Of a stretch of 64,000 nucleotides of DNA, positions 5,601-40,380 are shown one piece after another. The position numbers were made by a program, and so were the translations under genes. The notes below the pieces were generated by a model. It saw only the letters and a list, made by a program, of their open reading frames with translations. It ran no database searches and was not told the origin of the DNA. Numbering within the stretch: the first letter of the stretch is position 1; each line of letters begins with the position of its first letter. The stretch is from Eubacteriales bacterium (GTDB lineage: Bacteria; Bacillota; Clostridia; Oscillospirales; SIG627), in assembly GCA_045653035.1 (NCBI GenBank), contig JAZOLO010000003.1, forward strand, positions 24,514-88,513, in the 5' to 3' direction.

Positions 5601-5713
5601 GTTTTCACTCCCTTTTTTTATAATTATAAACGAAAGTTTTTAAAACTGCAATAGTTTTGAAAAAAAATCTGTTTTATTTAAATATAGTTACACTATCCTC
5701 TACAGTAAAAAAA

Positions 5714-5742
5714 GAGTTTTCCTTACGGAAAACTCTTTTTTT
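5714..5742. terminator. Perfect bidirectional terminator A-run GAGTTTTCC-TTAC-GGAAAACTC T-run, ending the 12-kb operon
   Basis: 9-bp perfect stem flanked by A7 and T7. It starts immediately after the stop at 5744. Confidence 0.85.
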
Positions 5743-5743
5743 A

Positions 5744-6772
5744 TTAGCCAACGATACCTGAACGCTCAATACCTTGAATGAGATACTTCTGTAAATAGCT
5801 GTAGAACAGAAGCAAAGGAAGGATAATGAGAAGTCCGCAAGTGTTAGTGATACATGACTCATACAGTGTCTGGGCAGCGAAATCTTCACCTGCAAGGCTT
5901 GAAGGAACCTTTACTATTCGAGGCATGAGTATTGCACCCGACTGTGTAAAGAACAAGTCTGTATAGAAGTTATCTGTCCACTGCCATGAGAACGCAAAGA
6001 GGAAGATTGTTATCATCATGGGAATAGAAATAGGAAGGATAATCTTAACAAAGGTTCCAAATACGTTTTCTCCGTCAATGTACGCTGCTTCTTCAAGCTC
6101 GTCGGGTACGCCCTTAAAGAACTGTCTCATCATGAATATGTAAAGACCGTTCTTAAATGCCATACCGCCTATTGAAAGTATAACCAGAGGCCAGTAGGAG
6201 TTGATAAGGTCGATGGTCGATGCTTCGAGGTTAAACAGCTCTGCAATACCTCCGTATATACCGAAAATATCGAAGAACTTGAAGTTCATGTACATTGAAA
6301 GCTTTACTGTGTCATGAGGAACTATCATAGTAAGGATAACTGCCATGAATACAAGCTTGTTACCACGGAATTTGAACTTTGCAAGACCGTATCCGATGAT
6401 TGAACATATAAGGGTCTGTACGAAAGCACAAAGTGTTGAAAGTACAAATGTGTTGAAGAAAGCAGTGAAGTATTGGTTTTCTCTTATTATGTACTTGTAG
6501 GTATCAAGTGTGGGGTATTTCGGAATAAGTCTAACCGTCGCATCAACAAGGTCGTCACGGCTCATAAATGAACCGAAAATCTTGACAAAGAACGGGAAAA
6601 TAATAATATAAGAAATACCGATGAGAAGAAGGTATCTGAAAATCTTCCAAACTACCTGCACTGCAAAGGACGAAGAAAGATACTTTGCCTTAAATCTCTC
6701 AGCAATACTTGTTCTCTCAAATTCTACTTTAATCTTATTTTTGCTGTTTTTAAGAATCTTAGGTGAATCCAT
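5744..6772 (-). CDS. Carbohydrate ABC transporter permease, MalG-like (pair 2)
   Basis: Contains an EAA-loop segment LEEAAYIDGENVFGTFVKIILPISIPMM and has 6 TM helices. AGGAGG RBS present. Confidence 0.85.
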   Translation of the reverse strand: MDSPKILKNSKNKIKVEFERTSIAERFKAKYLSSSFAVQVVWKIFRYLLLIGISYIIIFPFFVKIFGSFMSRDDLVDATVRLIPKYPTLDTYKYIIRENQYFTAFFNTFVLSTLCAFVQTLICSIIGYGLAKFKFRGNKLVFMAVILTMIVPHDTVKLSMYMNFKFFDIFGIYGGIAELFNLEASTIDLINSYWPLVILSIGGMAFKNGLYIFMMRQFFKGVPDELEEAAYIDGENVFGTFVKIILPISIPMMITIFLFAFSWQWTDNFYTDLFFTQSGAILMPRIVKVPSSLAGEDFAAQTLYESCITNTCGLLIILPLLLFYSYLQKYLIQGIERSGIVG

Positions 6773-6790
6773 TTACTATTTCCTCCTTTC

Positions 6791-7771
6791 TTAGTCTCTT
6801 CTCTGGTAGAATATGTACATTGATAGAAGACCTGCTACAATCGCTATCATTGCAATAACGATGAGGAAGTACATCCAGCTCATTGCTGAGCTTAAAACCT
6901 GTCCGTTTGCTGCTTCTCTGTACACTCTGTCAATATACGTCATTACCTGGTTTGACTCAGATGTAAATGAGTCAATTACAGTATAAATTGTATTTACCAA
7001 AATCATAGGGCTTATCATAGGGAAGGTTATCTTCCAGAATGTTTCCCAAGAGGAGGCACCGTCTATTCGGCATGACTCATAAATTGCGGGGTTGATTGAC
7101 TGAAGACCTGCAAGAAATATAAGCATCTGTACACCTGAACGGTTTACTATGTTATAAATATCGTTTACAAGTCCTGCAACGTAATCAACAAGTCCACGAC
7201 CTACTTTCATGTTAGCAAAGAGCTTTTGTATATCCATTGCGGAGATAATCTCGTTTGCAGTGGTCTGGCTTCCTTCGGCACCTGTTGAGATACCGTCAGA
7301 GGAGCCCATGTAGGTCATCATTGAGTTAGACTGGTCAATTGAATCGATAATACCTGTTGAAAGAATAACGGGGATAAAGAAGATAGCACGGAAAAGTGTT
7401 CTGCCGGGCATCTTATCGTTAAGCATAATCGCCATAAAAAGTGAAAATATAACGATTGCTGGGATATCAAGTACGAGCTGTCTTATACCTGCAACAAGCG
7501 TCGTAACGTAACCAGCATCTTCAAAAAGTGCTTCCTGGAAGTTGTCCCAACCTACGTAAATAAGGTCGTAACCACCCGTTGCCTGAATTTCAAGCTCATG
7601 GAAGCTGAATCTTATTGAGTCGAAAATAATGGGAACATATACTGCTATAAATACTGCTACGAAGGGAAGGACAAACCACCAGCCCGCACGAGCTTTTTTT
7701 CTGTCCAGTGATGCCGGCTTTTTCTTCTTCTTCTTTGCCGGTGCTACTATAACTTTTGCATCTGCGTTCAT
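6791..7771 (-). CDS. Sugar ABC transporter permease, MalF-like (pair 2) with an enlarged extracytoplasmic loop
   Basis: Contains YESCRIDGASSWETFWKITFPMISPM (EAA loop) and a K-rich N-terminus. GGGAGGAG RBS present. Confidence 0.85.
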   Translation of the reverse strand: MNADAKVIVAPAKKKKKKPASLDRKKARAGWWFVLPFVAVFIAVYVPIIFDSIRFSFHELEIQATGGYDLIYVGWDNFQEALFEDAGYVTTLVAGIRQLVLDIPAIVIFSLFMAIMLNDKMPGRTLFRAIFFIPVILSTGIIDSIDQSNSMMTYMGSSDGISTGAEGSQTTANEIISAMDIQKLFANMKVGRGLVDYVAGLVNDIYNIVNRSGVQMLIFLAGLQSINPAIYESCRIDGASSWETFWKITFPMISPMILVNTIYTVIDSFTSESNQVMTYIDRVYREAANGQVLSSAMSWMYFLIVIAMIAIVAGLLSMYIFYQRRD

Positions 7772-7789
7772 TTTATCTCCTCCCTTTCC

Positions 7790-10615
7790 TTATGCTGCTA
7801 CAAACTCGGCAAGTGCTACCACATTGCCGTTTGTAGTTACTGTATCGTTATCAAGGTCAACAGTATACTCTGTATTACCGTTGTTTACTGTTATTGTTGA
7901 AGCATTGTAATCAAGTATAATGATAATTCCGTTGTCGTATGTCATTTCAACGACTCTATCGTTATATGAGTGAGCTGTTACAATAGCATTCTGAACGGGA
8001 CTGAGAACCTTATTTACAAGCTTGTAGGTTTCTACCATATCGTCGTACCAGATATGATATCTGATAGAGTAGTACTTGTTGTATTCTTCGCTTGTCTTAA
8101 GAACGGAAGCGTTCTGATAAGAAAGAAGGAAGTAAAGGCTTGCACCGTTTTCGATAGTCTTCATTATGCTGCTGTTGAAGTCACCTGCAAGGTTGATAGC
8201 AGTTCCCGCAAAGTTCTTGTAGCCGTGGAATACCATACCTACAAAGGGAATTGCCTCGCTTGCAACGTAACGGTTACTACTATCAAGGGGAACGTCAATG
8301 ATATCTGTAGCATATCCAACTACGTATGAGTTTCCTTGATTTACCATGATGCTGTAATCGTCCTTCTGAACCTCAGCAAGAAGCTCAAGTACTCTTTCCT
8401 TGGAGTCCTCACGGTTGAGTGAGTTTTCCTTATTGTGGTCAGAGTTAAGGTCTGAACCGAGTGTACCGAATGAAATGCTCTTTGTGTTGAATTCCTTGAA
8501 ATCATCCTTGAAATATCCGTAGAAGTCACTATACTTCGAAGGAGAAATCATAAGTCTCTTATCGTTGAGGAATGACTGATATACAGGATCGTAAGTTCTG
8601 TGAACAGCTGAACGATTGTCTACAGTCTTAATTGTATCTTCCTTGATATCAAACTTGTCAAATCTTGAGAAGTTTGAGATGTAAACGAAGTCATAATCAG
8701 GGAATACCTTAACGCCGTTATCATTTGCAAATTTTACAAGATCAACAAGACCTTTCTTTCCGCCGATTTCCTTTTCTACCTTAGCTCTTGTGGGAGCTGT
8801 GGAAGCAAGACCTCCGTTTGCCCAACCCGAATACTTAATAGAAATGTTGTCGACGCCGTCTTTCTTGAGGCTTTCGATCATTGTCTTGGCGTTATCGAAG
8901 GTTGTAAGAGGCTTCTTTACGTCTACGGGAACACCGAGAATTCTTTCTGTAGTGTCAATAGCACCGAACGTTTCGATGTAAAGCTCAATGTCTTCTTCTC
9001 TGTCTGTTCTCTTAAGCTGTCCTGTCTTTTCAAGATAGTCACGGTAAATAGCAGCCATGTTAACATAGTTTGCTTCTTCGCCGTCCATCATGATGTACTT
9101 GATTCTGTAGTTGCCTGTGTACTTCTTATCAGTTTCTACAGTCCATGTTGCGGTAAGTCCCGATACCGAGATACCATCAAGAGGATATGTATCCTTGGGT
9201 CTGGGGAAAACGTTGATAGAAGTTGCAAAATACTTATTAAGTATACCGCCAGAGGCTGTGGTTATCTCTGCAAGAGAGTCACCCTCTGTGATTATTGCAA
9301 GGAATCCCTTGGGGTCTGCACCAACTATTTCAACTTCCTGTACAGTGCCATCTTCCAAAGTCACATATTCGTAAGAAACTGTTTTTGTGTTCTCTACCAT
9401 ACCGAAAACGGGGAGAGTCCAATTTTCCATGTTTGCAATAGACTTCTGTGAATAGAAAGAATAGTCCTCGCCGTAAAGTCTGTTGGTAATAGTTGTTGCA
9501 ATATCAGAAGCGCTGTCTTCAAATCTTACAAGAGTACCTGAACCGTCGGGAAGAACAACGTAACCGTTTTCGTTCTGGTTATATGCTCCCATGTAAGGAA
9601 GAATCTTAATATTAGTAAGCGAATACTGCTTTGCATCATAGCGAATACCGCGGGCAGGAAGTCTTACTTCAAGGCCGTCTTCTGTTAAATAATATTCAAG
9701 TGCCATGCGGAATACCGCAGGGTTTTTGGTAGAGCCTGTGTAACCTGTAAGGTCATGGTCGTAAAGAACGTCATCATAAGTATAGTTTGTATACGTTGTG
9801 ATGAAGTTTTCAAACATTTTAAGCTCACGTTCTACTCTTGTAACGGTGGGGTCAATAACGTAAACCGCCATCTGTCTTGTAATAGGAAGTGTGTTGTAAA
9901 GTGTCTGAATTTCGCTTTCTGTAAGACCGGGCTGGGTAGCATCCTTCAACAGATAGTAAGACTTAAATCTGTTATACATATCTGTTTCGCCCGACTCAGC
10001 AAGAGGTGCAAGAACGAATTCTTCAAATCTTGCCTTTTCAATCATCATGGGAAGTGTACGCTTTGTAGTTCCCTGTCCGATTGTATATTCTACTCTTATA
10101 CCACCACGGATTTTGCTCATCTTTATCTGGCTGAGCTCTGCGGCACTTGCATAAGAATTCATCGATTTATCTTCACCAGCGTCGTTATAGTTAACGATTA
10201 TCTGGCTGAGAAGTGCTTTTCTTTCTGTAGCCTTGTTGTCTTTGTTTGAAATGTCATAGGGGTTTGTGGAAAGGTACTGACCTGTAGTGGTGTTCACTAC
10301 CTGTACTTCACCTGTTTCCTTGTGATAGTACAAATCATATCCGAAGTTGGAATAAACAAGCTCCATTGTAGCAAGTTTTTCTTCGTTGGACGAATATTTT
10401 TTGTTTTCATAATCTTCACTGAGTACCGAATTAGTGGTGGTTGTGGTCTCCTTCTCTTCGGTCTCCTCGGTTTCTTCCGTTGTCTCTTCGGTGATTGTCT
10501 CCGCCTCGGGAGTATCAGTCTCGTCTGCGAGAACAGGAAGTGTTACTACTGATGAAAGGGTTGCAAACATCATTATGAATGCAAGCATCATCGCAATGAA
10601 TTTTATATTTTTCAT
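7790..10615 (-). CDS. Large secreted protein of unknown function (~940 aa); from memory resembles DUF5696-type proteins, possible TIM-barrel glycosidase-like core
   Basis: Signal peptide MKNIKFIAMMLAFIMMFATLSSVVTLPVLA/DE, then an acidic Thr/Glu linker. Central segment ...ISIKYSGWANGGLASTAP...VKVFPDYDFVY.... AGGAGG precedes the ATG at 10615; the track start at 10684 is an upstream extension. Confidence 0.6.
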   Translation of the reverse strand: MKNIKFIAMMLAFIMMFATLSSVVTLPVLADETDTPEAETITEETTEETEETEEKETTTTTNSVLSEDYENKKYSSNEEKLATMELVYSNFGYDLYYHKETGEVQVVNTTTGQYLSTNPYDISNKDNKATERKALLSQIIVNYNDAGEDKSMNSYASAAELSQIKMSKIRGGIRVEYTIGQGTTKRTLPMMIEKARFEEFVLAPLAESGETDMYNRFKSYYLLKDATQPGLTESEIQTLYNTLPITRQMAVYVIDPTVTRVERELKMFENFITTYTNYTYDDVLYDHDLTGYTGSTKNPAVFRMALEYYLTEDGLEVRLPARGIRYDAKQYSLTNIKILPYMGAYNQNENGYVVLPDGSGTLVRFEDSASDIATTITNRLYGEDYSFYSQKSIANMENWTLPVFGMVENTKTVSYEYVTLEDGTVQEVEIVGADPKGFLAIITEGDSLAEITTASGGILNKYFATSINVFPRPKDTYPLDGISVSGLTATWTVETDKKYTGNYRIKYIMMDGEEANYVNMAAIYRDYLEKTGQLKRTDREEDIELYIETFGAIDTTERILGVPVDVKKPLTTFDNAKTMIESLKKDGVDNISIKYSGWANGGLASTAPTRAKVEKEIGGKKGLVDLVKFANDNGVKVFPDYDFVYISNFSRFDKFDIKEDTIKTVDNRSAVHRTYDPVYQSFLNDKRLMISPSKYSDFYGYFKDDFKEFNTKSISFGTLGSDLNSDHNKENSLNREDSKERVLELLAEVQKDDYSIMVNQGNSYVVGYATDIIDVPLDSSNRYVASEAIPFVGMVFHGYKNFAGTAINLAGDFNSSIMKTIENGASLYFLLSYQNASVLKTSEEYNKYYSIRYHIWYDDMVETYKLVNKVLSPVQNAIVTAHSYNDRVVEMTYDNGIIIILDYNASTITVNNGNTEYTVDLDNDTVTTNGNVVALAEFVAA

Positions 10616-10634
10616 TTTTATCCTCCTGTTCTTA

Positions 10635-12770
10635 TTATAATCGATACGAAAGCTCGATGTAGACGTTAGAAACGAATGAAACAATCTTTGCTACAAGTCC
10701 TGAGAAGAGTACGCCAAGGAAGATGATTATTGCCATACCAACGATTGTTCCGATACATGTAATAACGTTCTTACCAAGTGCGTAGTCGTGGATAACGCTC
10801 ATTGCAAAGAAGATAAGGAAGCCTGCCCATACAAACCCTATAGAGTTTATAAGTGTTATAACCGCACCTTCTTCAAAAAGAAGAACGTTTGAAATTGCGG
10901 TAGCAGGAATCATCATCATAGGAATGGGAAGCATTGCATAACCCGTTGCCATGAAAATGTCCTTCATGCTGCCTTCACCCTCGAAAAGAGTGGTGAGACA
11001 CCAGTTAGCAATACACCAGAGAATGTAAGGCATGAGAACGCCAAGTGTTTCTCCGATATAGCTGAGACCCTCGGTTTCGGGTGCATGAATGTAAGCTGTA
11101 CCCGAAGAGCTGTAAATAAATCCGATAATAGTAAATACTACTATTGTAAGAGAAGCCTTCATGCTCCCTCGTTTTTCGTGCTTCATATCCCAAAAACCGT
11201 CGAAGGGGTGGAATATGATATGACAAGCATAAAGGAGCGTTTCCTTATAGCTTCTCTTGTCCTTCATTTTCTGTCCTGCAACGTTAACCTTATTTGCATA
11301 TTTGAAGAACTTGCCAACAAGGAAGAAGAATACTATAATTACAAGAGGAACAACGAGAATCCAGTCACTCATCCAAGCCTTTCTTATCTGTTTGAATGAG
11401 TTGGAATATTTTTCAACAGCGTGTGCATACTTGTACATTTCCATTGCTTCGTCATATCTGCCCTGACGGAAGTAGCTGTCGCCGATTCCGATATATGCCA
11501 TGTCAAAGTTGGAGTTACGCTGAAGAATTGCTTCCCAGTAAACAACTGCCTGGTCGTACTTTCTGTCTTCGGTGTTACGAAGAGCTTCAACAAGGAGGTC
11601 GCCGTATTCTGTTCTCTTGTAAGTAGTGATGGTATCGTTAGACTTATCAAGGATTACAAGCTCGTCACCCTTGTATGCGATACACTGAATGTTAGCTATG
11701 TTACCAAGCTGTGAGCCCTTATCGCCGAATATGTAAAGAAGCTTACCATCTTGGTCGTATGTAAATACCTTACTTCTCTTTTCGTCAATTATAGACCACA
11801 TTCCTGCAGGGCCGAGTGCTACGTCGATAATTTTGGAGGGACCTATAATGTTATACCCTTCCATTTCGTTCATCTGAACCATAACTTCACCAGAAGGAGG
11901 ATAGAAGCCGTTACGGTTCATAACGTCCTGTCCGGAGGGGTTAAGCTTCTTAACGGGAGCATAGTCTGCAGATTTATCCTTGTTGTCTATTGCATTTTGC
12001 TGTGAGGTTGAATCGATAGTGGATGTTGTAACGTAGATAAATCCTACGTCATCAATTGTAAGGTTGTTATACTCTGTAGGAACATACTGTGTGCTCTGTG
12101 CTCTCTGTGCCTTTGTTTGGAATTTTCTCCAAAATATATCAAGAGCAGAGGGAGTTGTCTTCTGAGCACCAAGGAATCCGAGGAACGAACCGTCAGAATT
12201 CATTGAAATTACACCGTAGGTTGTAGTTGAAGATACTACGTAAATTCTTCCCGCAGTATCAACTGCAACTGCTACAGGTGTGTAAATATGTCCTTCAGGA
12301 AATACGTCACTTTCCGGTTCGGGGATTATTCTCTTGAAAGCACCGTCTTCTCTGTTGAAAACAACTATTCTGTGGTTCTGTGAGTCTGCAACGTAAATTT
12401 CGATTTCGTTTACAAACACGCCCTCTGGAGCAGAGAGTGTATCGTATACACCATGCTCGTTATAAAAGGCAGAAATACCGAACTGTGTTTCCCAATTCTC
12501 GTTTACAACGATTACTCGGTTATTTTTTGTGTCAACGATGTAAACCATTTCGTGAGAATCCACGAAAATGTCCTTGGGGCTGTTGAGCTTCGTTTCGAGA
12601 GTAAGATCATCTGAATCGATGAGTCTGTCGGGAACGTAAGCATCTGGAGAAAGAGCCATAAAGCCATCAATGTCATAAGTGTAGGTCGCATAGGGCACCG
12701 CAGCAAAAATGCTAGGTGCTACCATCAAGGCAACAAGGAGGGCTAAAAGAATAACTCTGAGTTTTTTCAT
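10635..12770 (-). CDS. Exported NHL-type six-bladed beta-propeller + TPR + C-terminal Yip1-like polytopic membrane domain fusion protein (711 aa)
   Basis: Signal peptide MKKLRVILLALLVALMVAPSIFA. Six blade-like repeats, for example SPKDIFVDSHEMVYIVDTKNNRVIVVN and APEGVFVNEIEIYVADSQNHRIVVFN. TPR-like segment YDQAVVYWEAILQRNSNFDMAYIGIGDSYFRQGRYDEAMEMYKYA. About 6 TM helices in the last ~230 aa. Confidence 0.65.
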   Translation of the reverse strand: MKKLRVILLALLVALMVAPSIFAAVPYATYTYDIDGFMALSPDAYVPDRLIDSDDLTLETKLNSPKDIFVDSHEMVYIVDTKNNRVIVVNENWETQFGISAFYNEHGVYDTLSAPEGVFVNEIEIYVADSQNHRIVVFNREDGAFKRIIPEPESDVFPEGHIYTPVAVAVDTAGRIYVVSSTTTYGVISMNSDGSFLGFLGAQKTTPSALDIFWRKFQTKAQRAQSTQYVPTEYNNLTIDDVGFIYVTTSTIDSTSQQNAIDNKDKSADYAPVKKLNPSGQDVMNRNGFYPPSGEVMVQMNEMEGYNIIGPSKIIDVALGPAGMWSIIDEKRSKVFTYDQDGKLLYIFGDKGSQLGNIANIQCIAYKGDELVILDKSNDTITTYKRTEYGDLLVEALRNTEDRKYDQAVVYWEAILQRNSNFDMAYIGIGDSYFRQGRYDEAMEMYKYAHAVEKYSNSFKQIRKAWMSDWILVVPLVIIVFFFLVGKFFKYANKVNVAGQKMKDKRSYKETLLYACHIIFHPFDGFWDMKHEKRGSMKASLTIVVFTIIGFIYSSSGTAYIHAPETEGLSYIGETLGVLMPYILWCIANWCLTTLFEGEGSMKDIFMATGYAMLPIPMMMIPATAISNVLLFEEGAVITLINSIGFVWAGFLIFFAMSVIHDYALGKNVITCIGTIVGMAIIIFLGVLFSGLVAKIVSFVSNVYIELSYRL

Positions 12771-12784
12771 TTTCTTTACCTCCT

Positions 12785-13657
12785 TTAGTCCTTCATACCG
12801 GACGATGACATCGTCTCAATAACGTTACTCTGTGAAACCACGAATACTGTGATAGGCACTACCATCATAACAACGGTAGATGCAGCGGAAGCACCTGCTC
12901 GGGCAATACCACCTGTTACTATCTGGCTTATCGCATAGGGGAAGGTTTTAAGTTCTTCACTAAATACGTAAACCGACGCACCTTGATTCCAAAGTCCCTG
13001 GAAGGAGAATATAATAAGTGTGAGCCAAGCAGGCTTAACCATGGGCATTACCAGCGTCCAGAGAATGTGCCATTCGGAAGCACCGTCAAGACGGGCTGAT
13101 TCAAGAACTGAATCGGGAACGGAGGTTTCCATGAACTGCTTCATAAGGTAAAGACCCATTGTTGAACCCATAGCGGGAACGATAATTGCGAAATATGTAT
13201 CCACCCATCCGAGCGCTGACATAGTAATAAAGTTTGTAATACCCGCAACTGTTGTGTTGAACATGAGTGAATACACGATTACGTTGAAAAGGAACTTTCT
13301 TCCTGGGAATTTAATTTTAGCAAGCGAATAGGCTGCGAAGGAAGAAAGCATAACGTTACCGAACGTACCAAGTGTAGAGATGAATACCGTATTGAAAATG
13401 TATCTTGAGAAAGGAACCCAAGATGTTGACATCAGTTGGAAAAGGTCGGTAAAGTTTTTCATTGTGGGGTTAACTACGTATAGTCTGGGGGGGAACATCC
13501 ACAACTCGTTCAAGGGCTTGAGAGCCTGTACTATTGTGTAGTACATAGGGAAGAACATGAACACACCAAAGGCAAGCAATACGCCGTTGATGCTGAGGTC
13601 TCCTGCGAAAGAACGGTTGAGAGCATGATTATGTTTTTTAATTCTAAGCTTTGCCAT
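12785..13657 (-). CDS. Carbohydrate ABC transporter permease, MalG-like (pair 1)
   Basis: Contains LESARLDGASEWHILWTLVMPMVKPA (EAA loop) and has 6 TM helices. Confidence 0.88.
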   Translation of the reverse strand: MAKLRIKKHNHALNRSFAGDLSINGVLLAFGVFMFFPMYYTIVQALKPLNELWMFPPRLYVVNPTMKNFTDLFQLMSTSWVPFSRYIFNTVFISTLGTFGNVMLSSFAAYSLAKIKFPGRKFLFNVIVYSLMFNTTVAGITNFITMSALGWVDTYFAIIVPAMGSTMGLYLMKQFMETSVPDSVLESARLDGASEWHILWTLVMPMVKPAWLTLIIFSFQGLWNQGASVYVFSEELKTFPYAISQIVTGGIARAGASAASTVVMMVVPITVFVVSQSNVIETMSSSGMKD

Positions 13658-13658
13658 A

Positions 13659-14615
13659 CTACTGACCTACCTTCGACAAAAGTTTTTTAATTACCATGTT
13701 ACTTCCTATCATCATGAAGAAGAGGACTGTCGCGATTGCAGATGCATATCCCATTTCAAATCGCTGTCCGCCGTAGTCGTCAAGATGATGCATGATAGTG
13801 TGTGCAGAATACTCAGGGCTGGGGAAGCCTACGAGTGCCGTAATAATGCTTCCGAAGCCAAAGGATGAGGTTATAGACATAACTGCACCGAACATCATCT
13901 GAGGCTTCATTGAAGGAAGTGTTATAGACCACAGCTCCTGCCATCTGTTCTTGATACCGTCCATTGCACCCGCTTCATAAAGGCTTCTATCCACTATCTG
14001 GAAACCTGCAATAAAGGAAAGGAAAGAAGTACCAAGGCTCGTCCACAAAGCTACTATAATTACAAGAGGCATTATGTAGCTTGTGTTAGTAAAGAACTGA
14101 ATGGGTGAACTGATAATACCTGTATTTATGAGAAACGCGTTTACAAGACCGTACTGGTCACCTGAAAACAGCGTTGTCCAGATAAGATATACGTTACCTG
14201 AAATAGAGGGAGCATAGAATATAAGGGTTACCAGAGCTCTCATTTTAGGAGAGAGCTCATTGATAAACCACGCAAACAGAAGTGATAAAAGATAGGAAAC
14301 AGGTCCTGTGATTGCTGCGAATATCAGAGTGTTTTTAAGAGCAAGGAGGAAGATATCGTCATCAAGGAAGAGTCTTACGTAGTTGTCCATAAAAACGAAA
14401 TCGGGAAATTCCAGCATGTTAAAGTTCGTTAAACTGATTATAACCGATAATATAACGGGAGCAACCGTAAATACTAAAAAGATAAGATAGAAGGGAGCAA
14501 GAAGCAGGTATGCCACGTAGTTCTTCTTCATCTCATTCCACGTGTACTGAGCCTTTGTCATTTCGTGAACCGAAACTGGCTTTTTCTTGGCAACCGCCGC
14601 TTTTGTATTAGCCAT
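13659..14615 (-). CDS. Sugar ABC transporter permease, MalF-like (pair 1)
   Basis: Contains YEAGAMDGIKNRWQELWSITLPSMKP (EAA loop). There is a 1-nt gap to the next gene. Confidence 0.88.
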   Translation of the reverse strand: MANTKAAVAKKKPVSVHEMTKAQYTWNEMKKNYVAYLLLAPFYLIFLVFTVAPVILSVIISLTNFNMLEFPDFVFMDNYVRLFLDDDIFLLALKNTLIFAAITGPVSYLLSLLFAWFINELSPKMRALVTLIFYAPSISGNVYLIWTTLFSGDQYGLVNAFLINTGIISSPIQFFTNTSYIMPLVIIVALWTSLGTSFLSFIAGFQIVDRSLYEAGAMDGIKNRWQELWSITLPSMKPQMMFGAVMSITSSFGFGSIITALVGFPSPEYSAHTIMHHLDDYGGQRFEMGYASAIATVLFFMMIGSNMVIKKLLSKVGQ

Positions 14616-14656
14616 TGATTTTTCTCCTTTTTAAGTTTTCTTACTGCGGCAGTTCT

Positions 14657-17600
14657 TTAAGACTTTTTGAAGTCTTCAAGTGTCGGCAGATCAAATTCTT
14701 CGCGTTTTCTGGAAAGCTCTGCATTGATTACGTCGATATAGCTGAGCATTTCTTCAACAGGGTTTGCATCGTCGTTGTACGCTGCAAGGAACGCAAAGTT
14801 TACGTAACGGGTTATGATATAACCACCAGGCATTTCGGGAGTTACGGCAAGGTTATCAAACTGGTCGCGAAGTGCTGCAAGAACCTCCGGTGACCAAGGC
14901 TGATTTTCGAGAGCAGCAAGGTTTGCTGTTGCATACTGTCCTGAAGGACCGAGAAGGGTTACAAGCTCGTTACCGTAAGTGGTTTGTGCGTATTCGTCTG
15001 TCCACCACTTCATAAACTTCCATGCTCTTTCCTCGTCGCCCTGTGCACCTCTCATCATCATTACACAGGTTATAGTGGAAACAGAATTGTAGTTGATGCT
15101 TTCTATTTCCTTTTCACCAGTTTCAAGGTTATAAATTATATCTCCATTTTCATCGGTCTTATATGTTGCTGTGCCGGGAAGACGCGTTATCTTCCAAAGA
15201 CCACTGATTTCCGGAGCGAATATTTGGAGCTGGTTGTATGATGTATATGCAGTTACCGCAATAGGCATTTCTCCTGATCTGAAGCGGTTTGCAAAGTCAA
15301 AGGTCAAGGGGAAAGAGTACATGGTAAAGTACTCGCAAACCTCCTTGAAGCAGTCAAGTGCTGTATTGGAGTCGAGGTTTATCTGCATACCGCGTGTAAG
15401 ATATGCGTCTTCTGCGTCAAACCCTGCCGCTACAACCTCCTCTTCACTGAGTGCATCCTTGTACATAGGCTCGTCTCTCTGATACATGAGCATAGTGGCA
15501 CCGGCTAGGTTAGATGGGAAGCCTGCCTGAAGGTTGTTGGACTGGAGTATGGGAAGAATTCCGTAAAGGTCGTCCCAAGTCTTGGGAATCTTCATATCAA
15601 GCTCTGCGAACACATCAAGTCTTACGAAAAGCATGTTAAATGTTTCCGTTTCGGGAAGTCCATAAACCTCACCGTAAAGAGTGAGAGGAATCATTGCGGT
15701 ATCACTGAATCTCTCTTTTACTTCGTCCATTCCCTCCATATTTGTTATGGGAAGAACTGCGCTTCTGATAGCATAGTTGATACATGTATCAGCAGTATTC
15801 TGAATCGAAACGTCAGGACCTGTTCCTGCAAGAGTTGCGGGAAGTAGTGAACCTGCCGCAACAAGCTTTAAGTTAACGGGAACGCCGTATTCGGCAGTAA
15901 AGTCAGTAAGCATTGAACGGATGATCTGTGCTTGGTCACGACCTGCTGTCATCCAAACCTGAAGGGGATCTTCGTTGTCCTCTGACTGATCCATTGCCCC
16001 AAGATTATTGTAATCGCTGATAAAGCTCATTACGAAAGATGAAAGCTCATATTTAAGAGCAGCAAAGAAACCAGCGTTTGCGGTTGGAAGCTCCTTGTTG
16101 TCAGCGGGCTGAACCTGAATGTAGTCGAGAAGGAGGGGCTGTGAACGAGCTGTCTGAATCCATGTACCAAGTGAACCAATGTTGTCTTTCAAGGTTCCGA
16201 GGTTAGGAGCTACATCGTCGTCATCGGATCCCATTAGGTCAAGAATAAGAGCAATCTTATCAAGAAGAACTGAATCTTCACCCTTCTGACCTGTTATTAT
16301 TTCAAGTCTCTTCGATATATCGGTAAGGCGTTTGCCTTCTTCTACAAGACCGTTCATGACGTCTGGCATAAGAGCTGTAAATCCGTAGTCGCGATAGATA
16401 TCGGGGTTGGGACCGGTAACCATTATAATTTTAAGGTAGTAATTATTGATGTTTACCATGCACTCATCAACTTCACGAAGTATTTCAGCCATATCGCCAA
16501 GAACTACTTCAAGTCTCACAATGTGCTTACCCTTTGTAAGATAGAAGCTAAAGGGATCAATAACTGTTTTACCTTTCTTATCTTGTGAATCAATTCCAAG
16601 GAATTGTGTCTGCCATGATGAGTCGTAGTTAAACGAAATATCATTTGCTTCAGCGAAAGGTACTTTTCCGTCTATGTAAATTCTACGTGAAACAAACATA
16701 CCTGCAAGTGTGTCCTGCTTGAAGCGCGTTGCTATATTGTAAAGTCCGTCTTCGGGAACTTCGATTTCCCACTCAATCCACTGACCATTGGACTGCCACT
16801 TTGTTCCACCTATAGTATTAAGGAAAACTTTAGAAGCGTTCTGGGGTTCGTTTGATGCTGATGTTCTGTCTGTAATTGCATAGATTGACTGGTCAGAGGT
16901 ACGGAAGGCGTGTTCCGCCTGATACTTTACAGGCTTTACTGAGGAAGGTGCTTTATAGCCCTTGTCCGCATATTCCTTCTCAACCTCAGGATAAGATGCC
17001 TGACCTTCACTGAAATATACTCTGACAGATTTTATAATCATGCCTTCTTTGATACCATTTATGGTAACTGTGTGTTCGCCCTGTCCGAGATAGTACTTAA
17101 GAGGCTCTGAATAGTAACCTGTTGTGTCATAAACGAAACGCTTTGACCAAGTGGGACGAGCCGCTTTTGCCGGTTTTATTTCATTGCCGTTGATATCGTG
17201 AAGAAATCCGCGGTCAAATCTTGTGTCGTATTCATCAACCCATGTTCCTACGAAAGAGATAGACCTTGTCTCTGAATAAGGATATGCACCGTCAACCATT
17301 ATTGCACGTTCAATGTTATTTGAACTTGCGGAAGCAGCCATATACTCTACCTCAAAGTTATAAAACCCTTCTGTTTCGATGTTAAAGCCAAACGTAAGTT
17401 CAGACGATGCGGTCGTAAGTAAAACTCCCTCAACATCCTCCATTCCGGCTTTTGCATCTGAAATAAGCTCTTCAAGGTATTTTTCGTTGTATTTATTGTG
17501 CTCTTCTGTCTTATCTGCCACGTTAGGTGTCATCTTATCGGTAATTTCAAGTTGAGCTGAATACTTAACTGTAAGCTCATCGGCGAGCTCCTCAGCATTA

Positions 17601-17890
17601 AGAATTCTTACGTCGTCCGTGGTTTTATCAGCAACCACGTCTATATATGTAAGGCGCTTAACATCCTTACCATTCTGAGGTACCTCCACATCGTTAAGGT
17701 ACTCCTGATAGCTCAACGCAGAAAGCAGAGCCTTAACCTCTGCCAGCTCTTCCTCGGGAGACTTATCGCCTGTATCGACAGGCAACGTTCCAGCATAGGA
17801 CTCAGCAAGTGCAGCTGTGCCAAGCTGTGTGGCAAGCATCACTATAACCAAGAGAGCTGCAAGGGATCTTGAAAAAGGTGATCTAAACAT
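14657..17890 (-). CDS. Giant (1077 aa) extracellular solute-binding protein: signal peptide, two tandem CBM-like beta-sandwich modules, C-terminal family-1 sugar-binding domain
   Basis: Signal MFRSPFSRSLAALLVIVMLATQLGTAALA/ES has no lipobox Cys. There is an internal duplication (…FGFNIETEGFYNFEVEY…IMVDG…YYLGQGEHTVTI… versus …WIEWEIEVPEDGLYNIATRF…IYIDG…FYLTKGKHIVRL…). The last ~450 aa look like a CUT1 binding protein. AGGAGG RBS present. Confidence 0.7.
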   Translation of the reverse strand: MFRSPFSRSLAALLVIVMLATQLGTAALAESYAGTLPVDTGDKSPEEELAEVKALLSALSYQEYLNDVEVPQNGKDVKRLTYIDVVADKTTDDVRILNAEELADELTVKYSAQLEITDKMTPNVADKTEEHNKYNEKYLEELISDAKAGMEDVEGVLLTTASSELTFGFNIETEGFYNFEVEYMAASASSNNIERAIMVDGAYPYSETRSISFVGTWVDEYDTRFDRGFLHDINGNEIKPAKAARPTWSKRFVYDTTGYYSEPLKYYLGQGEHTVTINGIKEGMIIKSVRVYFSEGQASYPEVEKEYADKGYKAPSSVKPVKYQAEHAFRTSDQSIYAITDRTSASNEPQNASKVFLNTIGGTKWQSNGQWIEWEIEVPEDGLYNIATRFKQDTLAGMFVSRRIYIDGKVPFAEANDISFNYDSSWQTQFLGIDSQDKKGKTVIDPFSFYLTKGKHIVRLEVVLGDMAEILREVDECMVNINNYYLKIIMVTGPNPDIYRDYGFTALMPDVMNGLVEEGKRLTDISKRLEIITGQKGEDSVLLDKIALILDLMGSDDDDVAPNLGTLKDNIGSLGTWIQTARSQPLLLDYIQVQPADNKELPTANAGFFAALKYELSSFVMSFISDYNNLGAMDQSEDNEDPLQVWMTAGRDQAQIIRSMLTDFTAEYGVPVNLKLVAAGSLLPATLAGTGPDVSIQNTADTCINYAIRSAVLPITNMEGMDEVKERFSDTAMIPLTLYGEVYGLPETETFNMLFVRLDVFAELDMKIPKTWDDLYGILPILQSNNLQAGFPSNLAGATMLMYQRDEPMYKDALSEEEVVAAGFDAEDAYLTRGMQINLDSNTALDCFKEVCEYFTMYSFPLTFDFANRFRSGEMPIAVTAYTSYNQLQIFAPEISGLWKITRLPGTATYKTDENGDIIYNLETGEKEIESINYNSVSTITCVMMMRGAQGDEERAWKFMKWWTDEYAQTTYGNELVTLLGPSGQYATANLAALENQPWSPEVLAALRDQFDNLAVTPEMPGGYIITRYVNFAFLAAYNDDANPVEEMLSYIDVINAELSRKREEFDLPTLEDFKKS

Positions 17891-18076
17891 TACTTTTCCT
17901 CCTGAAAGTTTTGGGTTGAATTACTCTAACACTGTCCGAAATTATTTACGACGTGTTAGACACACATCGTCAAAAACGGTCAAAATAGCTGATTTAAAGC
18001 ACTATTTCAGGCTAAATTTGACACACAGATTTTTAACTGTTCACAAAATAGCCCAGTTTGAGTATTTTACTAGGTA

Positions 18077-18105
18077 AGTATATCATCAACACCTGATTTT
18101 GTCAA
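18077..18105 (-). promoter_or_regulatory. Sigma-A promoter TTGACA-17-TATACT for the 12-kb operon, leaving a ~180-nt leader
   Basis: The reverse strand reads TTGACAaaatcaggtgttgatgaTATACT. The -10 is at 18077-18082 and the -35 at 18100-18105. Confidence 0.6.
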
Positions 18106-18158
18106 GTATGACCATATTTAGTTGCTCTATTATATATATATTAACAGTATTTTACATA

Positions 18159-18173
18159 TTAACAAATTGTTAA
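18159..18173. promoter_or_regulatory. Perfect palindrome TTAACAA-A-TTGTTAA upstream of the operon promoter; candidate regulator site
   Basis: Seen directly. Additional TTAACA half-sites lie at about 18141 and 18445. Confidence 0.3.
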
Positions 18174-18263
18174 CAACGCACGTTCGAGGAAGTTAAAATA
18201 TAAATTTTATAAAAGTGCACAAAAATTAATATAATAATATATCATACTATTTTTAATACCAAG

Positions 18264-18300
18264 AAAACCCCCGATTTTTAGGGGGGTTTTTAGCTTTTTT
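18264..18300. terminator. Orphan GC-rich hairpin AAAACCCCC-N8-GGGGGGTTTT + T-rich tail in a gene-free AT-rich region
   Basis: C5/G5-6 stem flanked by A and T runs. The T-tail TTTTTAGCTTTTTTT is stronger on the plus strand. No annotated gene ends here. Confidence 0.55.
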
Positions 18301-18549: not shown

Positions 18550-18570
18550 ATATGACATTTTTTGTCATAT
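18550..18570 (-). terminator. AT-rich hairpin ATATGACA-N5-TGTCATAT at the mnmA stop, followed by a U-rich tract on the minus strand
   Basis: 8-bp perfect stem overlapping the stop codon. Weak, all-AT-rich stem. Confidence 0.4.
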
Positions 18571-19604
18571 TACACAATATATCCCCCAAACAACACTCTT
18601 CCCTCTTCGTCGTAAAACACTGCCGACTGTCCTGAAGACGGTTTTTTGATGAGAATGCTTGGTATAACCTCCGCGTACTCATCAGAAACATTCACCTTAC
18701 ATGGAATAAGTGGCGAACGATAGCGTGGGCGAAGAAAACACGACACCTCGCCACGTGTTTCCTTTATTCCGACAAAGTTTAAAGAGCGTATTTTGAAGAA
18801 AGCGGAACTGTTATCTTCCTCATACCCTAGTACTACCTCGTTTGTTTCGGGTCGTATTTCGGTAACATAAACAGGTCTGCCAAGTGCTATCCCCAGTCCC
18901 TTGCGTTGACCTACAGTGTACGCGGCAATACCGTTATGAACGCCGAGCACCTTTCCGTCAAGATTCACAAAATTTCCTTTTGTAAAAGCTCTTTCCAATC
19001 CTTCTTCATCAAGATTTTCTTTAAGATATGATATATAATCATCATTTGGAATAAAACATATTTCCTGACTTTCGCAAATCTCTTCCACAAGTGCCGATTC
19101 TTTTACATTTGTTATAACCTCACTTTTAAGTGCACTCCCGAGAGGTGCTATAAATCTGGAAAGTTGCTCTTGCGAAAGTTGCCACAAGAAGTAGCTCTGG
19201 TCCTTCTTCGTATCCTCTGCCGACACCAAAGTAAAGCGGTCGCGATACTTTTCTACCTTTACGTAGTGACCCGTAGCAATTAAGTTTATTCCAAGCGAGT
19301 CTGCAACACGAACAAGGCTATGAAATTTTATTTTTCTGTTGCAAACCACACAGGGATTAGGCGTTCTGCCTGAAACGTATTCGTTTACAAAGTAGTCCTC
19401 TACTTCCCTTTTAAAGTTTTCACTATAATCCGCCACATGCAGCTTTATACCGAGCTTTTCTGCTGCCGACTTCGCCTTTTCAAGTGGGGCCGTCGGATGA
19501 AGCACAAGTACTACACCTTCTACCTCATAGCCTTTTTCCTGTAAAACCCGACATGCCCAAGTGCTGTCAATCCCGCCTGACATTCCAAGGAGTACCTTTT
19601 CCAT
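18570..19604 (-). CDS. mnmA: tRNA 2-thiouridine(34) synthase
   Basis: N-terminal PP-loop LLGMSGGIDSTWA, plus ...TPNPCVVCNRKIKF... and ...DQSYFLW.... Confidence 0.93.
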   Translation of the reverse strand: MEKVLLGMSGGIDSTWACRVLQEKGYEVEGVVLVLHPTAPLEKAKSAAEKLGIKLHVADYSENFKREVEDYFVNEYVSGRTPNPCVVCNRKIKFHSLVRVADSLGINLIATGHYVKVEKYRDRFTLVSAEDTKKDQSYFLWQLSQEQLSRFIAPLGSALKSEVITNVKESALVEEICESQEICFIPNDDYISYLKENLDEEGLERAFTKGNFVNLDGKVLGVHNGIAAYTVGQRKGLGIALGRPVYVTEIRPETNEVVLGYEEDNSSAFFKIRSLNFVGIKETRGEVSCFLRPRYRSPLIPCKVNVSDEYAEVIPSILIKKPSSGQSAVFYDEEGRVLFGGYIV

Positions 19605-20047
19605 TATTTTGCTCCGTATCTGCGGCTTTGTTGTACCGCCGCTTCATCACATCTTTCGTTATAGCCATGACCGTCATGTCCCTTTACCCATAAAAAGGAC
19701 ACCTCGTGTCGGTTAAGTTGAAAAACCAAACGTTTCCACAAATCAACGTTAAGAACAGGCTTTCCGTCGGCTTTTCTCCAGTTTTTATTCTGCCATGATT
19801 CAAGCCAGCCCTTATTTATGGCATCCACCACGTATTTTGAGTCTGATACTATATCAACCTCGCACTCTGTTTTCAAGGCTTCAAGAGCTGAAACAACCGC
19901 TGTAAGCTCCATTCTGTTATTTGTGGTTTCCTCTTCTCCGTCCGAGATGAGCTTTTCATTTTCGTTATATACAAGTATTGCACACCAACCGCCGGGACCT
20001 GGATTTCCGCTACACGCACCGTCGGTATATACTGTTACCTTTTTCAT
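19604..20047 (-). CDS. rnhA: Ribonuclease HI
   Basis: Reads MKKVTVYTDGACSGNPGPGGW...NNRMELTAV...DSKYV...W.KGH.G...NE.CD. GAGG RBS precedes the ATG at 20047. The stop overlaps the mnmA start (TAATG). Confidence 0.9.
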   Translation of the reverse strand: MKKVTVYTDGACSGNPGPGGWCAILVYNENEKLISDGEEETTNNRMELTAVVSALEALKTECEVDIVSDSKYVVDAINKGWLESWQNKNWRKADGKPVLNVDLWKRLVFQLNRHEVSFLWVKGHDGHGYNERCDEAAVQQSRRYGAK

Positions 20048-20107
20048 TTTTACCTCTGAATATCTTATTTTTATAATTTTAACATAATTTATTCTTAAGG
20101 TCAATAG

Positions 20108-20130
20108 AAAAAAAGAGCCCCGAAGGGCCC
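20108..20130 (-). terminator. Intrinsic terminator GGGCCC-UUCG-GGGCUC + U7 (minus strand) after the DUF4830-like gene
   Basis: 6-bp stem with a UUCG tetraloop and a U7 tail when read on the minus strand. Confidence 0.7.
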
Positions 20131-20613
20131 TTAAATCTGATTTTGGGTATCTGTTAAGACAGTTTGGCTCCCATCGGTTACTGCAAGGGACACATCTCCT
20201 GCTATAACGCGGTTTTTATATACGATAATAGTCGCCACAGCCTTGCCGTCCTTGTGGTTTGTTACAGTATAGGTATAAAGCTTTACTTTTTTTCCCTTGT
20301 ACTTTTCAAGATTAAGTCCCTCTGTCTTTTGAAGAGAATTATATCTTTTGTATATTTCGTCAAACTCTTCGGGAATCCTTATATCCGCTACCGTTTCCGA
20401 GTCTTCCAGTATATCCCAACCAAGTCTTTCAAGAAACTTGACCCTATCCTCTTTCCCTTTTACGTTTTTATATTCTACACTGGCAACAGTTTGAACCGAA
20501 TCAGTTTTGTCGGTGGCAGGAACAAGAGCAACTGTCGTTATCATTGCGGCGGCACAAAGAGTCATTACTCCGATATATTTCAAGGTAGTTGCTTTCAAAG
20601 TATAAACAAACAT
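20131..20613 (-). CDS. Membrane-anchored DUF4830-like protein
   Basis: N-terminal TM helix, then IPEEFDEIYKRYNSLQKTEGLNLEKYKGKKVKLYTYTV, which matches my memory of the DUF4830 pattern. Confidence 0.55.
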   Translation of the reverse strand: MFVYTLKATTLKYIGVMTLCAAAMITTVALVPATDKTDSVQTVASVEYKNVKGKEDRVKFLERLGWDILEDSETVADIRIPEEFDEIYKRYNSLQKTEGLNLEKYKGKKVKLYTYTVTNHKDGKAVATIIVYKNRVIAGDVSLAVTDGSQTVLTDTQNQI

Positions 20614-20663
20614 AAACTTACTCCTAATCTTTTTTAGTGTATTCTATGTTCGTTTTTTTATAT

Positions 20664-21380: not shown

Positions 21381-21392
21381 AACAAGCTCCTT

Positions 21393-23276: not shown

Positions 23277-23300
23277 TTTTATTTCTCTAATATTTTTCTA

Positions 23301-23329
23301 TTGAAATAATTTATAAAATTTGATATAAT
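23301..23329 (+). promoter_or_regulatory. Sigma-A promoter TTGAAA-17-TGaTATAAT upstream of ppa
   Basis: TTGAAA at 23301-23306 and TATAAT at 23324-23329, with an extended -10 TG. Confidence 0.6.
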
Positions 23330-23429
23330 GAATTACAAGGTGCTTTTATTGTACCATATTTTTATAAAAAATTCAATAATTGCTTAATTTTTTTGAGTTT
23401 TTATTTAATAAACGTAAGGGAGTGTTATT

Positions 23430-23963: not shown

Positions 23964-23997
23964 AATAAAGGCATCGCTTAAGCGATGCCTTTATTTT
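23962..23997. terminator. Bidirectional terminator AAAATAAAGGCATCGC-TTAA-GCGATGCCTTTATTTT between ppa and rsmG
   Basis: Perfect long stem flanked by A and T runs. Confidence 0.85.
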
Positions 23998-24760: not shown

Positions 24761-24769
24761 ATTTCACCG

Positions 24770-26653: not shown

Positions 26654-26654
26654 T

Positions 26655-32943: not shown

Positions 32944-33020
32944 GGGAAACCTCCTCAATATAATACAAAGAAAATTAGCTGTGACGGGCATTCGCACGGC
33001 ACTATATCATAAACAAAGTT

Positions 33021-37870: not shown

Positions 37871-37942
37871 ATCATACACCTCCTTTATTTTATCCTTCTA
37901 TATTATTTATACGCAAAAAAAGACGAAAATCCTTTTTATTTT

Positions 37943-39463: not shown

Positions 39464-39496
39464 TTTGCCTCCACAAAATTTATTCTAATGATGTAT

Positions 39497-40225: not shown

Positions 40226-40242
40226 TTATTTATACCTTTGAA

Positions 40243-40269: not shown

Positions 40270-40380
40270 ACTTTTTATTACACAGGAAATTGCATCGCAA
40301 TTGCTTGTAAAAAACAAAGTCTACCTATGAAAAATCGTGAGCGTCAGCGAACATAATTTCAGCTGCCGGAGGCGACTTTT

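Follow-up and report, generated by a model that had tools for sequence, protein, structure and literature searches.

A conserved seven-gene operon encoding two CUT1-type permease pairs and three large exported proteins, a candidate carbohydrate capture and import apparatus of Bacillota

The DNA analysed here, referred to throughout as the window, is a 64,000-nt stretch from a Eubacteriales bacterium (contig JAZOLO010000003.1, positions 24,514 to 88,513), and the subject of this report is a run of seven consecutive, tightly packed open reading frames (ORFs) that the ORF listing places on its minus strand at positions 5744-17890. In order of transcription, these encode a giant secreted binding protein, a first pair of ATP-binding cassette (ABC) permeases, a membrane protein combining NHL, TPR and Yip1 domains, a protein of the DUF5696 family and a second pair of permeases (Table 1). 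An earlier note, made from the letters of this DNA alone, had described seven genes running from one promoter to one terminator with gaps of 1-41 nt, and all of these elements were located, the measured gaps being 41, 1, 14, 19, 18 and 18 nt in operon order. The tandem beta-sandwiches, the MalF/MalG-type pairs and the NHL/TPR/Yip1 fusion that it had proposed were likewise borne out by Pfam and NCBIfam matches and by AlphaFold2 models. An AGGAGG-type ribosome-binding site had been credited to every gene, which was true of six of the seven starts (GGAGG/AGGAG-type), whilst the start of the 290-aa permease has the weaker GAAGGTAGG. The fifth gene was taken to start at the ATG at 10615, and not at the TTG at 10684 that opens a mechanical ORF of 964 aa, its homologues being 940-946 aa in length.

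Table 1. Features of the seven-gene operon and its boundaries; genes are given in operon order, and positions are those of the window.
Feature	Position	Strand	Basis and detail
Secreted binding protein, 1077 aa	14657-17890	-	Pfam SBP_bac_8, E 1.4e-13, residues 660-973
Permease 1a (P1a), 318 aa, UgpA/MalF-type	13659-14615	-	Pfam BPD_transp_1; NCBIfam UgpA, 1.3e-18; EAA loop EAGAMDG...LP at residue 214
Permease 1b (P1b), 290 aa, UgpE/MalG-type	12785-13657	-	Pfam BPD_transp_1; NCBIfam; EAA loop at residue 186
NHL-TPR-Yip1 membrane protein, 711 aa	10635-12770	-	Pfam Yip1 5e-14, NHL 1e-8, TPR 1e-6
DUF5696 protein, 941 aa from ATG	7790-10615	-	Pfam PF18952, E 3.6e-160
Permease 2a (P2a), 326 aa, UgpA/MalF-type, ~90-aa extracytoplasmic insertion	6791-7771	-	Pfam; NCBIfam; EAA loop at residue 232
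Permease 2b (P2b), 342 aa, UgpE/MalG-type	5744-6772	-	Pfam; NCBIfam; EAA loop at residue 228
Predicted sigma-70-type promoter, TTGACA-17-TATACT, TG-extended -10 (TGATATACT)	18077-18105	-	Consensus scan, 11/12 matches + TG
5' leader, ~186 nt, ends invariant	17891-18076	-	Six-sequence alignment
Intrinsic-terminator-like hairpin GAGTTTTCC-GTAA-GGAAAACTC, A and T runs on flanks	5714-5742	-	Read from sequence
Terminator-like hairpin CCCCC-N8-GGGGG, closing upstream mnmA	18268-18285	-	Kept in six sequences

The short gaps, the single promoter and the single terminator, together with an identical gene order in relatives and the occurrence of the NHL and Yip1 parts as both fused and split genes, support the view that the seven genes form one functional unit. 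The promoter motif was retained in five relatives (L004-L008), at -218 to -230 from the start codon, and the invariant blocks of the leader comprised AGTAAAATACTCAAACTGG (19 nt) directly after the -10 element and GTGTTAGAGTA..ATCAACCCAAAAC..AGGAGG ahead of the ATG. At the other end, the terminator hairpin begins 1 nt past the last stop codon and was kept in relative L004, whilst the hairpin that closes mnmA marks the 5' boundary of the unit. Internal promoters or terminators that might split the operon were considered and rejected, as gaps of at most 41 nt leave no room for them and intragenic scan hits were at background; the promoter scan returned 48 hits against 35.8 +/- 5.7 expected.

The non-coding DNA upstream of the operon (minus strand, 17891-18300) was unusually conserved in the same five relatives, extending over about 250 nt with a nucleotide identity of 73-88%, compared with 75-92% for the proteins, and included the further invariant blocks TTTTTGTGCA and TTATTATATATATAAT in addition to those of the promoter and leader. 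This conserved stretch may be an operator or a leader RNA. The ATACTC/AAC at the 5' end of the leader could pair, over a long range, with GTT/GAGTAT near the ribosome-binding site; within the six-sequence alignment no covariation was found for this ATACTC/GAGTAT pairing and the RNAalifold structure was weak. When the leader and operon were scanned, neither a credible Rfam family nor a catabolite-responsive (cre) element was found. On the minus strand at 5673-5766, Rfam gave a weak match to the TD-2 small RNA, with 31.5 bits where the gathering score is 48.7 (E 0.2). As this match overlaps the terminator of the operon as well as the final codons of the gene for the 342-aa permease, the hairpin was most likely hit by chance.

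A search for the pattern EAA-x2-DG-x10-14-P recovered an EAA loop in all four permeases, hence both pairs should be able to dock an ATPase. P1a and P2a share just 24% identity; P1a was found to be 57% and 44% identical to the first-pair permeases of Butyrivibrio and Paenibacillus, respectively, and P2a to be 39% and 34% identical to the second-pair permeases of the same organisms. The low identity between P1a and P2a, coupled with this position-by-position orthology, implies that the two pairs had diverged before the cassette spread. The permease sequences show the operon to encode two distinct, predicted type I translocators of the CUT1 type, P1a/P1b and P2a/P2b. The CUT1 importer features at the locus are a BPD_transp_1 pair with EAA loops, present twice over, and a MalE-like (cluster B) binding protein.

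As the earlier note had observed, the operon lacks an ATPase gene. No gene for an MsmX/UgpC-type ATPase was identified in the window, nor within 10 kb of the ~80 closest loci. The only candidates for an in-window partner were an ABC-F gene (21393-23276) and a GlnQ-like ATPase gene (48973-49764) situated beside its own permease gene, and both were rejected. The latter belongs to a minus-strand pair (48973-51082) in which a 463-aa protein with a BPD_transp_1 domain confined to residues 272-459 precedes the ATPase; this protein may be a fused binding-protein/permease, which with the GlnQ-like ATPase would constitute a separate amino-acid-type ABC importer. In Paenibacillus cellulosilyticus, the gene immediately upstream of the cassette encodes a ugpC-type ATPase.

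The giant binding protein consists of a type I signal peptide/helices, two beta-sandwiches (residues 156-292 and 321-463), a four-helix bundle (467-582) and a domain resembling maltose-binding protein (MBP) at residues 643-1077. Its AlphaFold2 model was built on 43 orthologues, with a predicted local distance difference test score (pLDDT) of 82. Matches among PDB sequences comprised MalE2 and other sugar binding proteins, a weak match to GanS was obtained from NCBIfam, and in Foldseek the MBP-like domain was closest to oligosaccharide-binding CUT1 proteins and to MBP itself, with target template-modelling scores (TM-scores) of 0.70-0.81. The Foldseek search with the whole model was swamped by this domain and did not resolve the N-terminal modules. 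When Pfam was run over the orthologues, the beta-sandwich modules were assigned to CBM_35 in 8 and to Golvesin_C in 15 of the 43. The binding proteins of monoderm ABC systems are usually lipid-anchored through a lipobox cysteine, a typical rather than strictly defining trait. The lipobox was absent from 42 of the 43 orthologues, which carry AXA-type signal peptides instead; as judged from these sequences, its absence from the giant binding protein is unusual for a monoderm.

The 711-aa protein encoded between the permease pairs begins with a signal peptide, followed by an extracellular NHL beta-propeller (residues ~55-400), a TPR region (~400-460), a transmembrane helix (471-489) and a multi-pass Yip1 domain (518-685); a cytoplasmic HPFDGFWD motif is present as well. 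The Yip1 domain corresponds to PF04893 (E 5.2e-14, profile positions 3-170 of 173), hydrophobic segments were placed at residues 535-694 by the hydropathy profile, and the PDB sequence matches were to NHL and TPR structures. The NHL and Yip1 parts are encoded by two overlapping genes in most distant loci (L084, L088-L093), whilst they are fused in P. cellulosilyticus (L085) and in the Oscillospiraceae loci, and this pattern of fusion and fission argues for a physical partnership. In a plasmid collection, matches to the Yip1-NHL and DUF5696 proteins co-occurred exclusively.

The fifth gene product, previously listed as a secreted protein of about 940 aa, is now assigned to Pfam DUF5696 and has a glycosidase-like model. 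An N-terminal signal/anchor helix and a Thr/Glu-rich linker are followed by an extra domain (residues 66-300), after which come a beta-sandwich at 300-510, a (beta/alpha)8 barrel at ~545-875 and, at the C-terminus, a further beta-sandwich (879-934). The AlphaFold2 model, built on 42 orthologues, had a pLDDT of 84 and a predicted TM-score of 0.81. Its Foldseek relatives were the GH129-like 3,6-anhydro-D-galactosidase DagB (5opq/8rzk, E 2.7e-25) and the GH129 enzyme NagBb (5wzn/5wzr, E ~4e-21, TM-score 0.73 for 5wzn), with GH101, GH36 and GH31 enzymes lower in the list; across E-values of 1e-25 to 1e-13, target TM-scores were 0.67-0.74 with chains of GH129 and GH129-like enzymes and ~0.3 with those of GH101, which are longer. 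The modelled structure thus shows a three-domain glycosidase fold of the GH129/GH101 type. At the sequence level the relationship is remote: identity in the structural alignments to GH129/GH101 relatives was 9-12%, and a profile of 42 family sequences matched NagBb at a borderline E of 0.003 over ~130 residues that include a common GWAxxG region. A phmmer search found no relative among PDB sequences, and neither Pfam nor CAZy-type profiles placed the protein in any glycoside hydrolase (GH) family. In comparison with NagBb, DagB and GH101 enzymes, the DUF5696 protein is alike in its three-domain layout, in the GWAxxG region shared with NagBb and in a conserved Asp after strand beta4, but differs in this low identity, in the additional N-terminal domain of ~235 residues and in its signal/anchor and linker. 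NagBb is presumably intracellular, whereas the DUF5696 protein is secreted.

Residues D357, D384, R735, N762, H797, N808 and E822 were each kept in at least 147 of 149 diverse DUF5696 sequences, and D475 in 148, being replaced by Gln in P. cellulosilyticus. An Asp follows strand beta4 at position 726 in 139 of the 149, and position 778, after beta6, is Asp or Glu in 122; in the orthologue group of the window, which comprises 42 sequences, 40 have D726 and all have D or E at position 778. The beta-sandwich/TIM barrel/beta-sandwich architecture has been described for DagB (PMC5698469), and GH129 enzymes employ an Asp nucleophile and a Glu/Asp acid-base, namely D435/E478 in NagBb and D486/E517 in DagB (PMC8106489, PMC5698469). 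D726 would most likely be the nucleophile, although the equivalence of D726 and D778 to the catalytic residues of GH129 is drawn from strand position alone; that the protein is an active enzyme, and which residues form its catalytic pair, are predictions. Many DUF5696 members (for example P0186, P0206 and P0239) have C-terminal extensions of 500-1500 aa without a Pfam domain, and a Pfam search of five such relatives revealed no additional domains.

DUF5696 is a large family, represented by 5952 clusters at 50% identity in an exhaustive hidden Markov model search, and a relative was found in at least 576 genomes in a scan of one genome per species. The seven window proteins were used in tblastn searches, and of the 83 loci considered, consisting of the best-scoring 80 and three others and hence biased towards close relatives, 70 carried the genes for the binding protein, P1a, P1b, Yip1 protein, DUF5696 protein, P2a and P2b in this order on one strand. 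The remaining 13 were cut by contig ends only, so that the order was identical in 70 of 70 complete loci. Across related loci, identity was highest for the permeases (55-73%), with the ectoproteins at 34-55%. The same order was also present in L086 and L087, including a human-gut species, and in all of eight distant loci of 26-35% identity, where orthology again held position by position. These were located on plasmid pNP243 of Butyrivibrio fibrisolvens D1, on a megaplasmid of P. cellulosilyticus, in Acetatifactor, Roseburia, Paenibacillus alkalitolerans, P. catalpae and Cohnella nanjingensis, and on a JGI metagenome contig. The arrangement flagged in the earlier note is accordingly not a chance one, as it was repeated in every related locus examined. 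In some loci the long C-terminal extension of the DUF5696 protein displaces the second permease pair 2-3 kb downstream, the gap lying between the DUF5696 match and P2a (L062, L077). All relatives of the cassette were from Bacillota. A defence or phage origin was considered and rejected, given that the components are of importer type and that the plasmid collection held just two matches, both on chromid-like replicons.

The surroundings of the cassette differed between lineages. In the window and its close relatives the flanking genes are of a housekeeping nature (mnmA, rnhA, rluB-like, ABC-F, AI-2E, rplM/rpsI, mnmE/mnmG, dnaG, ileS and pyk). In the window itself, mnmA, rnhA, DUF4830 and rluB-like genes lie upstream of the operon, and downstream of it are AI-2E, PP-loop and rplM genes; the AraC-type gene closest to it (1334-2221) is situated beyond three other genes on the opposite strand. 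The cassette is set in a dense block of core genes, noted at 18570-28040 and 36137-47308, which holds mnmA, rnhA, DUF4830, a pseudouridine synthase gene, ABC-F, mnmG, mnmE, dnaG, a Mg-chelatase-like/ComM gene, ileS, a cardiolipin synthase gene and pyk; a 651-aa ORF among the housekeeping genes (minus strand, 31042-32997) had no Pfam match at E <= 1e-5. This core-gene setting contrasts with the accessory, regulated loci of Lachnospiraceae and Paenibacillaceae. In Paenibacillaceae, a LacI gene and the gene of a 455-aa lipoprotein binding protein lie upstream and GH26 and/or GH113 genes downstream. The locus of a Roseburia metagenome-assembled genome (L092) has LacI and a 346-aa GH53 upstream, and on its downstream side an 800-aa lipoprotein GH53 together with a lipoprotein binding protein, whilst Butyrivibrio and Acetatifactor have a histidine kinase (accompanied in Butyrivibrio by a response regulator) and a GH43 upstream and two binding proteins downstream.

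The core is therefore partnered, depending on the lineage, by enzymes for mannan (GH26/GH113), by enzymes for beta-1,4-galactan (GH53) or by GH43 enzymes, and it appears to behave as a substrate-flexible chassis that is combined with lineage-specific enzymes. The small GH26, GH113, GH53 and GH43 proteins have no signal peptide and would consequently act on imported oligosaccharides; one lipoprotein GH53 and one lipoprotein GH43 are also carried by these relatives. The companion binding proteins of the distant relatives are canonical, with a lipobox present, and are orthologous across lineages, their identity being 27-30% between classes and 67-73% among Lachnospiraceae despite differing GH partners. 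It follows that the earlier view of a second permease pair without a binding protein of its own applies to the window but not to distant relatives, which have a second canonical binding-protein gene beside the cassette. The related suggestion that the propeller-Yip1 protein substitutes for the binding protein of the second translocator is made less necessary by the canonical lipoprotein binding protein that most of the distant relatives supply.

Two further observations concern these distant loci. A protein of 325-327 aa without a recorded Pfam match follows GH26 in L091 (15652-16629) and L093 (15659-16642), the two copies being 68% identical. In Roseburia (L092; 16090-16518, 18042-19016), the last ~140-180 residues of the 631-aa companion binding protein recur as two copies towards the C-terminus of the adjacent 800-aa GH53 (42-55% identity), which suggests, from sequence comparison, that the two proteins share a binding or anchoring module.

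We propose that the operon encodes the conserved core of a Bacillota apparatus, made up of several components, for the capture and import of carbohydrate, a reading to which we would assign a probability of roughly 0.6. ABC systems of type I whose permeases are of the BPD_transp_1 family and whose binding proteins are MBP-like act as importers, and the identification of the present system as one derives from the UgpA/UgpE matches, the EAA loops, the MBP-like fold and the ugpC-type gene upstream of the cassette in P. cellulosilyticus. The exporter that the earlier note had offered as an option is disfavoured by these loops, by the binding protein and by the presence of that ATPase gene in cis. 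The link to glycans is provided by the CBM_35 and Golvesin_C assignments among binding-protein orthologues, and by the GH-like fold of DUF5696 with its invariant acidic and polar residues. Under this proposal, the giant non-lipidated binding protein would catch a glycan chain via its two CBM35-like modules, and the surface-exposed DUF5696 protein, whose modelled fold is that of a glycosidase, might trim or cleave the captured glycan. The MBP-like domain would then hand an oligosaccharide to one or both translocators, both of which would draw their energy from one shared ATPase of the MsmX/UgpC type, its gene lying in another part of the genome. By analogy with YknW (see below), the NHL-TPR-Yip1 protein could be a membrane-embedded organiser that holds the soluble ectoproteins at the translocators. 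The cytoplasmic endo-type GHs of relatives hint that the imported oligosaccharides may be fairly long and finished off in the cytoplasm.

Several points weigh against this proposal. The giant binding protein has no lipid anchor that would retain it at the cell, and no ATPase gene adjoins the cassette, either in the window or, over a distance of 10 kb, in the ~80 loci closest to it. Over the same distances, there was also no adjacent GH, regulator or second binding protein. D726 is replaced by N or S in 10 of the 149 sequences and D778 by Tyr in Butyrivibrio, the catalytic pair being a putative one, and with one core paired with various backbone-cleaving GH families, it is difficult to assign one fixed substrate to DUF5696. 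That the seven proteins associate physically is something that we infer only from gene order and from fusion and fission.

A more ambitious version, which we put forward tentatively and regard as somewhat doubtful, would have all seven proteins form one membrane supercomplex, in which the Yip1 protein scaffolds the binding protein and the GH129-like enzyme onto the two translocators as a Bacillota counterpart of the SusCD 'utilisome', and in which DUF5696 founds a new GH family. The chassis would in that case be substrate-agnostic, and an exchange of the enzymes on its flanks would let lineages re-tool it for mannan, for galactan or for arabinan/xylan.

It is also conceivable, though unlikely, that DUF5696 is catalytically dead and serves as a glycan-binding or structural platform, the cassette then being devoted purely to capture and import with cleavage left to enzymes encoded elsewhere. 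The pairing of the core with different true GHs by lineage would suit such a role, as would the replacement of D726 in 10 of 149 sequences, a candidate acid/base (D778) that is not universal, and the failure of Pfam, CAZy-type profiles and PDB sequence searches to place the protein in a GH family. Set against this are the seven residues that 147 or more of the 149 highly diverse sequences retain, which resemble an active-site constellation, and the near-complete retention of D726 (40/42) and of an acidic residue at 778 (42/42) in the protein's own orthologue group.

The two remaining alternatives are both countered by the rigid gene order across classes and by the sugar-locus contexts of relatives. 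According to the first, which we consider improbable, the operon comprises two independent CUT1 importers, each with its own binding protein (the second being encoded elsewhere in the genome), whilst the NHL-Yip1 and DUF5696 genes are co-transcribed passengers. Both permease pairs are complete and only 24% identical to each other, distant relatives do have a second canonical lipoprotein binding protein, and '2 x ABC' loci occur among the Gram-positive polysaccharide utilisation loci (gpPULs) of Roseburia (PMC5320581), yet from Oscillospiraceae to Paenibacillaceae the order did not vary and the two pairs were in every case separated by the accessory genes, a locus with only one half was not seen among those examined, and the Yip1-NHL and DUF5696 matches were inseparable in the plasmid collection. 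The second, that the target of the system is not a nutrient but the envelope of the cell itself or its extracellular polysaccharide, which would be remodelled, recycled or exported, would account for a housekeeping neighbourhood (mnmA, rnhA, rplM/rpsI, mnmE/mnmG) without a sugar regulator or cre site and is in keeping with a strong, conserved consensus promoter, but is very improbable given the importer type of the ABC components and the ties of the core, in relatives, to LacI or histidine kinase/response regulator systems and cytoplasmic plant-glycan GHs.

The operon, read as the core of a carbohydrate capture and import apparatus, can be compared with several known systems. Some CUT1 importers borrow a shared MsmX/MsmK/UgpC ATPase, examples being GanSPQ and AraNPQ of Bacillus subtilis with MsmX. 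The cassette is like importers of this type in having MalF/MalG heterodimers with EAA loops, an MBP-like domain and no ATPase gene in the operon. It differs from them in the presence of two non-identical permease pairs in one operon, in a 1077-aa non-lipoprotein binding protein with CBM35-like modules and a helical bundle, and in the NHL-TPR-Yip1 and DUF5696 genes that always lie between the permease pairs.

In the Sus-like systems of Bacteroidota, SusC/SusD are combined with surface glycan-binding proteins and surface GHs. These are alike in logic, with a conserved core for transport and capture and with substrate-specific enzymes and regulators that vary by locus. There is no homology, however, and the relatives of the present system are all Bacillota, with uptake predicted to be by ABC importers; Pfam and NCBIfam gave no match to SusC/TonB-dependent-transporter or SusD families among the seven proteins.

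A gpPUL, as defined by Sheridan et al. (2016; PMC5320581), requires one or more enzymes that degrade polysaccharide, a system for carbohydrate transport and a transcriptional regulator, and the same paper lists '2 x ABC' gpPULs and an arabinogalactan gpPUL with three GH53 enzymes in R. faecis/R. hominis. Of the strains tested there, R. faecis M72/1 alone grew on type 1 arabinogalactan. The cassette resembles the gpPULs of Roseburia and Eubacterium rectale in combining a transporter with a putative glycan-degrading enzyme, and the loci of relatives do include GHs and regulators, but the locus in the window has neither a regulator nor a recognised CAZy-family enzyme. The PUL-like machine envisaged in the earlier note is supported by the GH129/GH101-like fold, by the CBM35/Golvesin_C-like modules and by the proximity of relatives to GH genes and sugar regulators, whereas the window locus itself falls outside the published gpPUL definition. 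The seven-gene core is not described in the text of PMC5320581.

The closest parallel for the Yip1 domain is YknW of Bacillus, a Yip1-family protein reported to modulate assembly of the YknXYZ ABC complex (PMC4887032, citing Yamada et al. 2012). In both cases a bacterial membrane protein with a Yip1 domain is encoded alongside an ABC transporter. YknYZ is a MacB-type exporter with a membrane-fusion protein, concerned with protection from a peptide toxin, whereas the partners in the cassette are type I sugar importers, and in the cassette an extracellular NHL propeller and TPR region are joined to the Yip1 domain, by fusion or by coupling. Pfam and NCBIfam identified no MacB/FtsX or HlyD-type gene in the operon.

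A CUT1 ABC importer within a Gram-positive glycan-utilisation system is in itself a known type of system. Dual translocators, a non-lipidated binding protein bearing carbohydrate-binding modules, a Yip1-NHL protein and a GH129-like DUF5696 protein together appear to make up a widespread yet undescribed architecture, and four of the component types belong to no ABC sugar importer described so far. In the literature search, DUF5696/PF18952 was not mentioned, bacterial Yip1 or NHL proteins were not linked to sugar ABC importers, and the search for CBM35-bearing binding proteins likewise gave no relevant result.

Far less is understood of how Gram-positive bacteria of gut and soil take hold of long oligosaccharides and import them than of the Sus paradigm of Bacteroidota. 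The genomes with a DUF5696 relative include many Oscillospiraceae and Lachnospiraceae of the rumen and of the chicken and human gut, and cultured carriers of the cassette are available in B. fibrisolvens D1, in Paenibacillus and Cohnella species and probably in Roseburia. If the proposal is true, the cassette would represent a new accessory architecture for type I ABC importers and would provide a role for bacterial Yip1 proteins and a genomic marker of fibre-degrading capacity in uncultured Clostridia, whilst DUF5696 would be a new glycosidase family.

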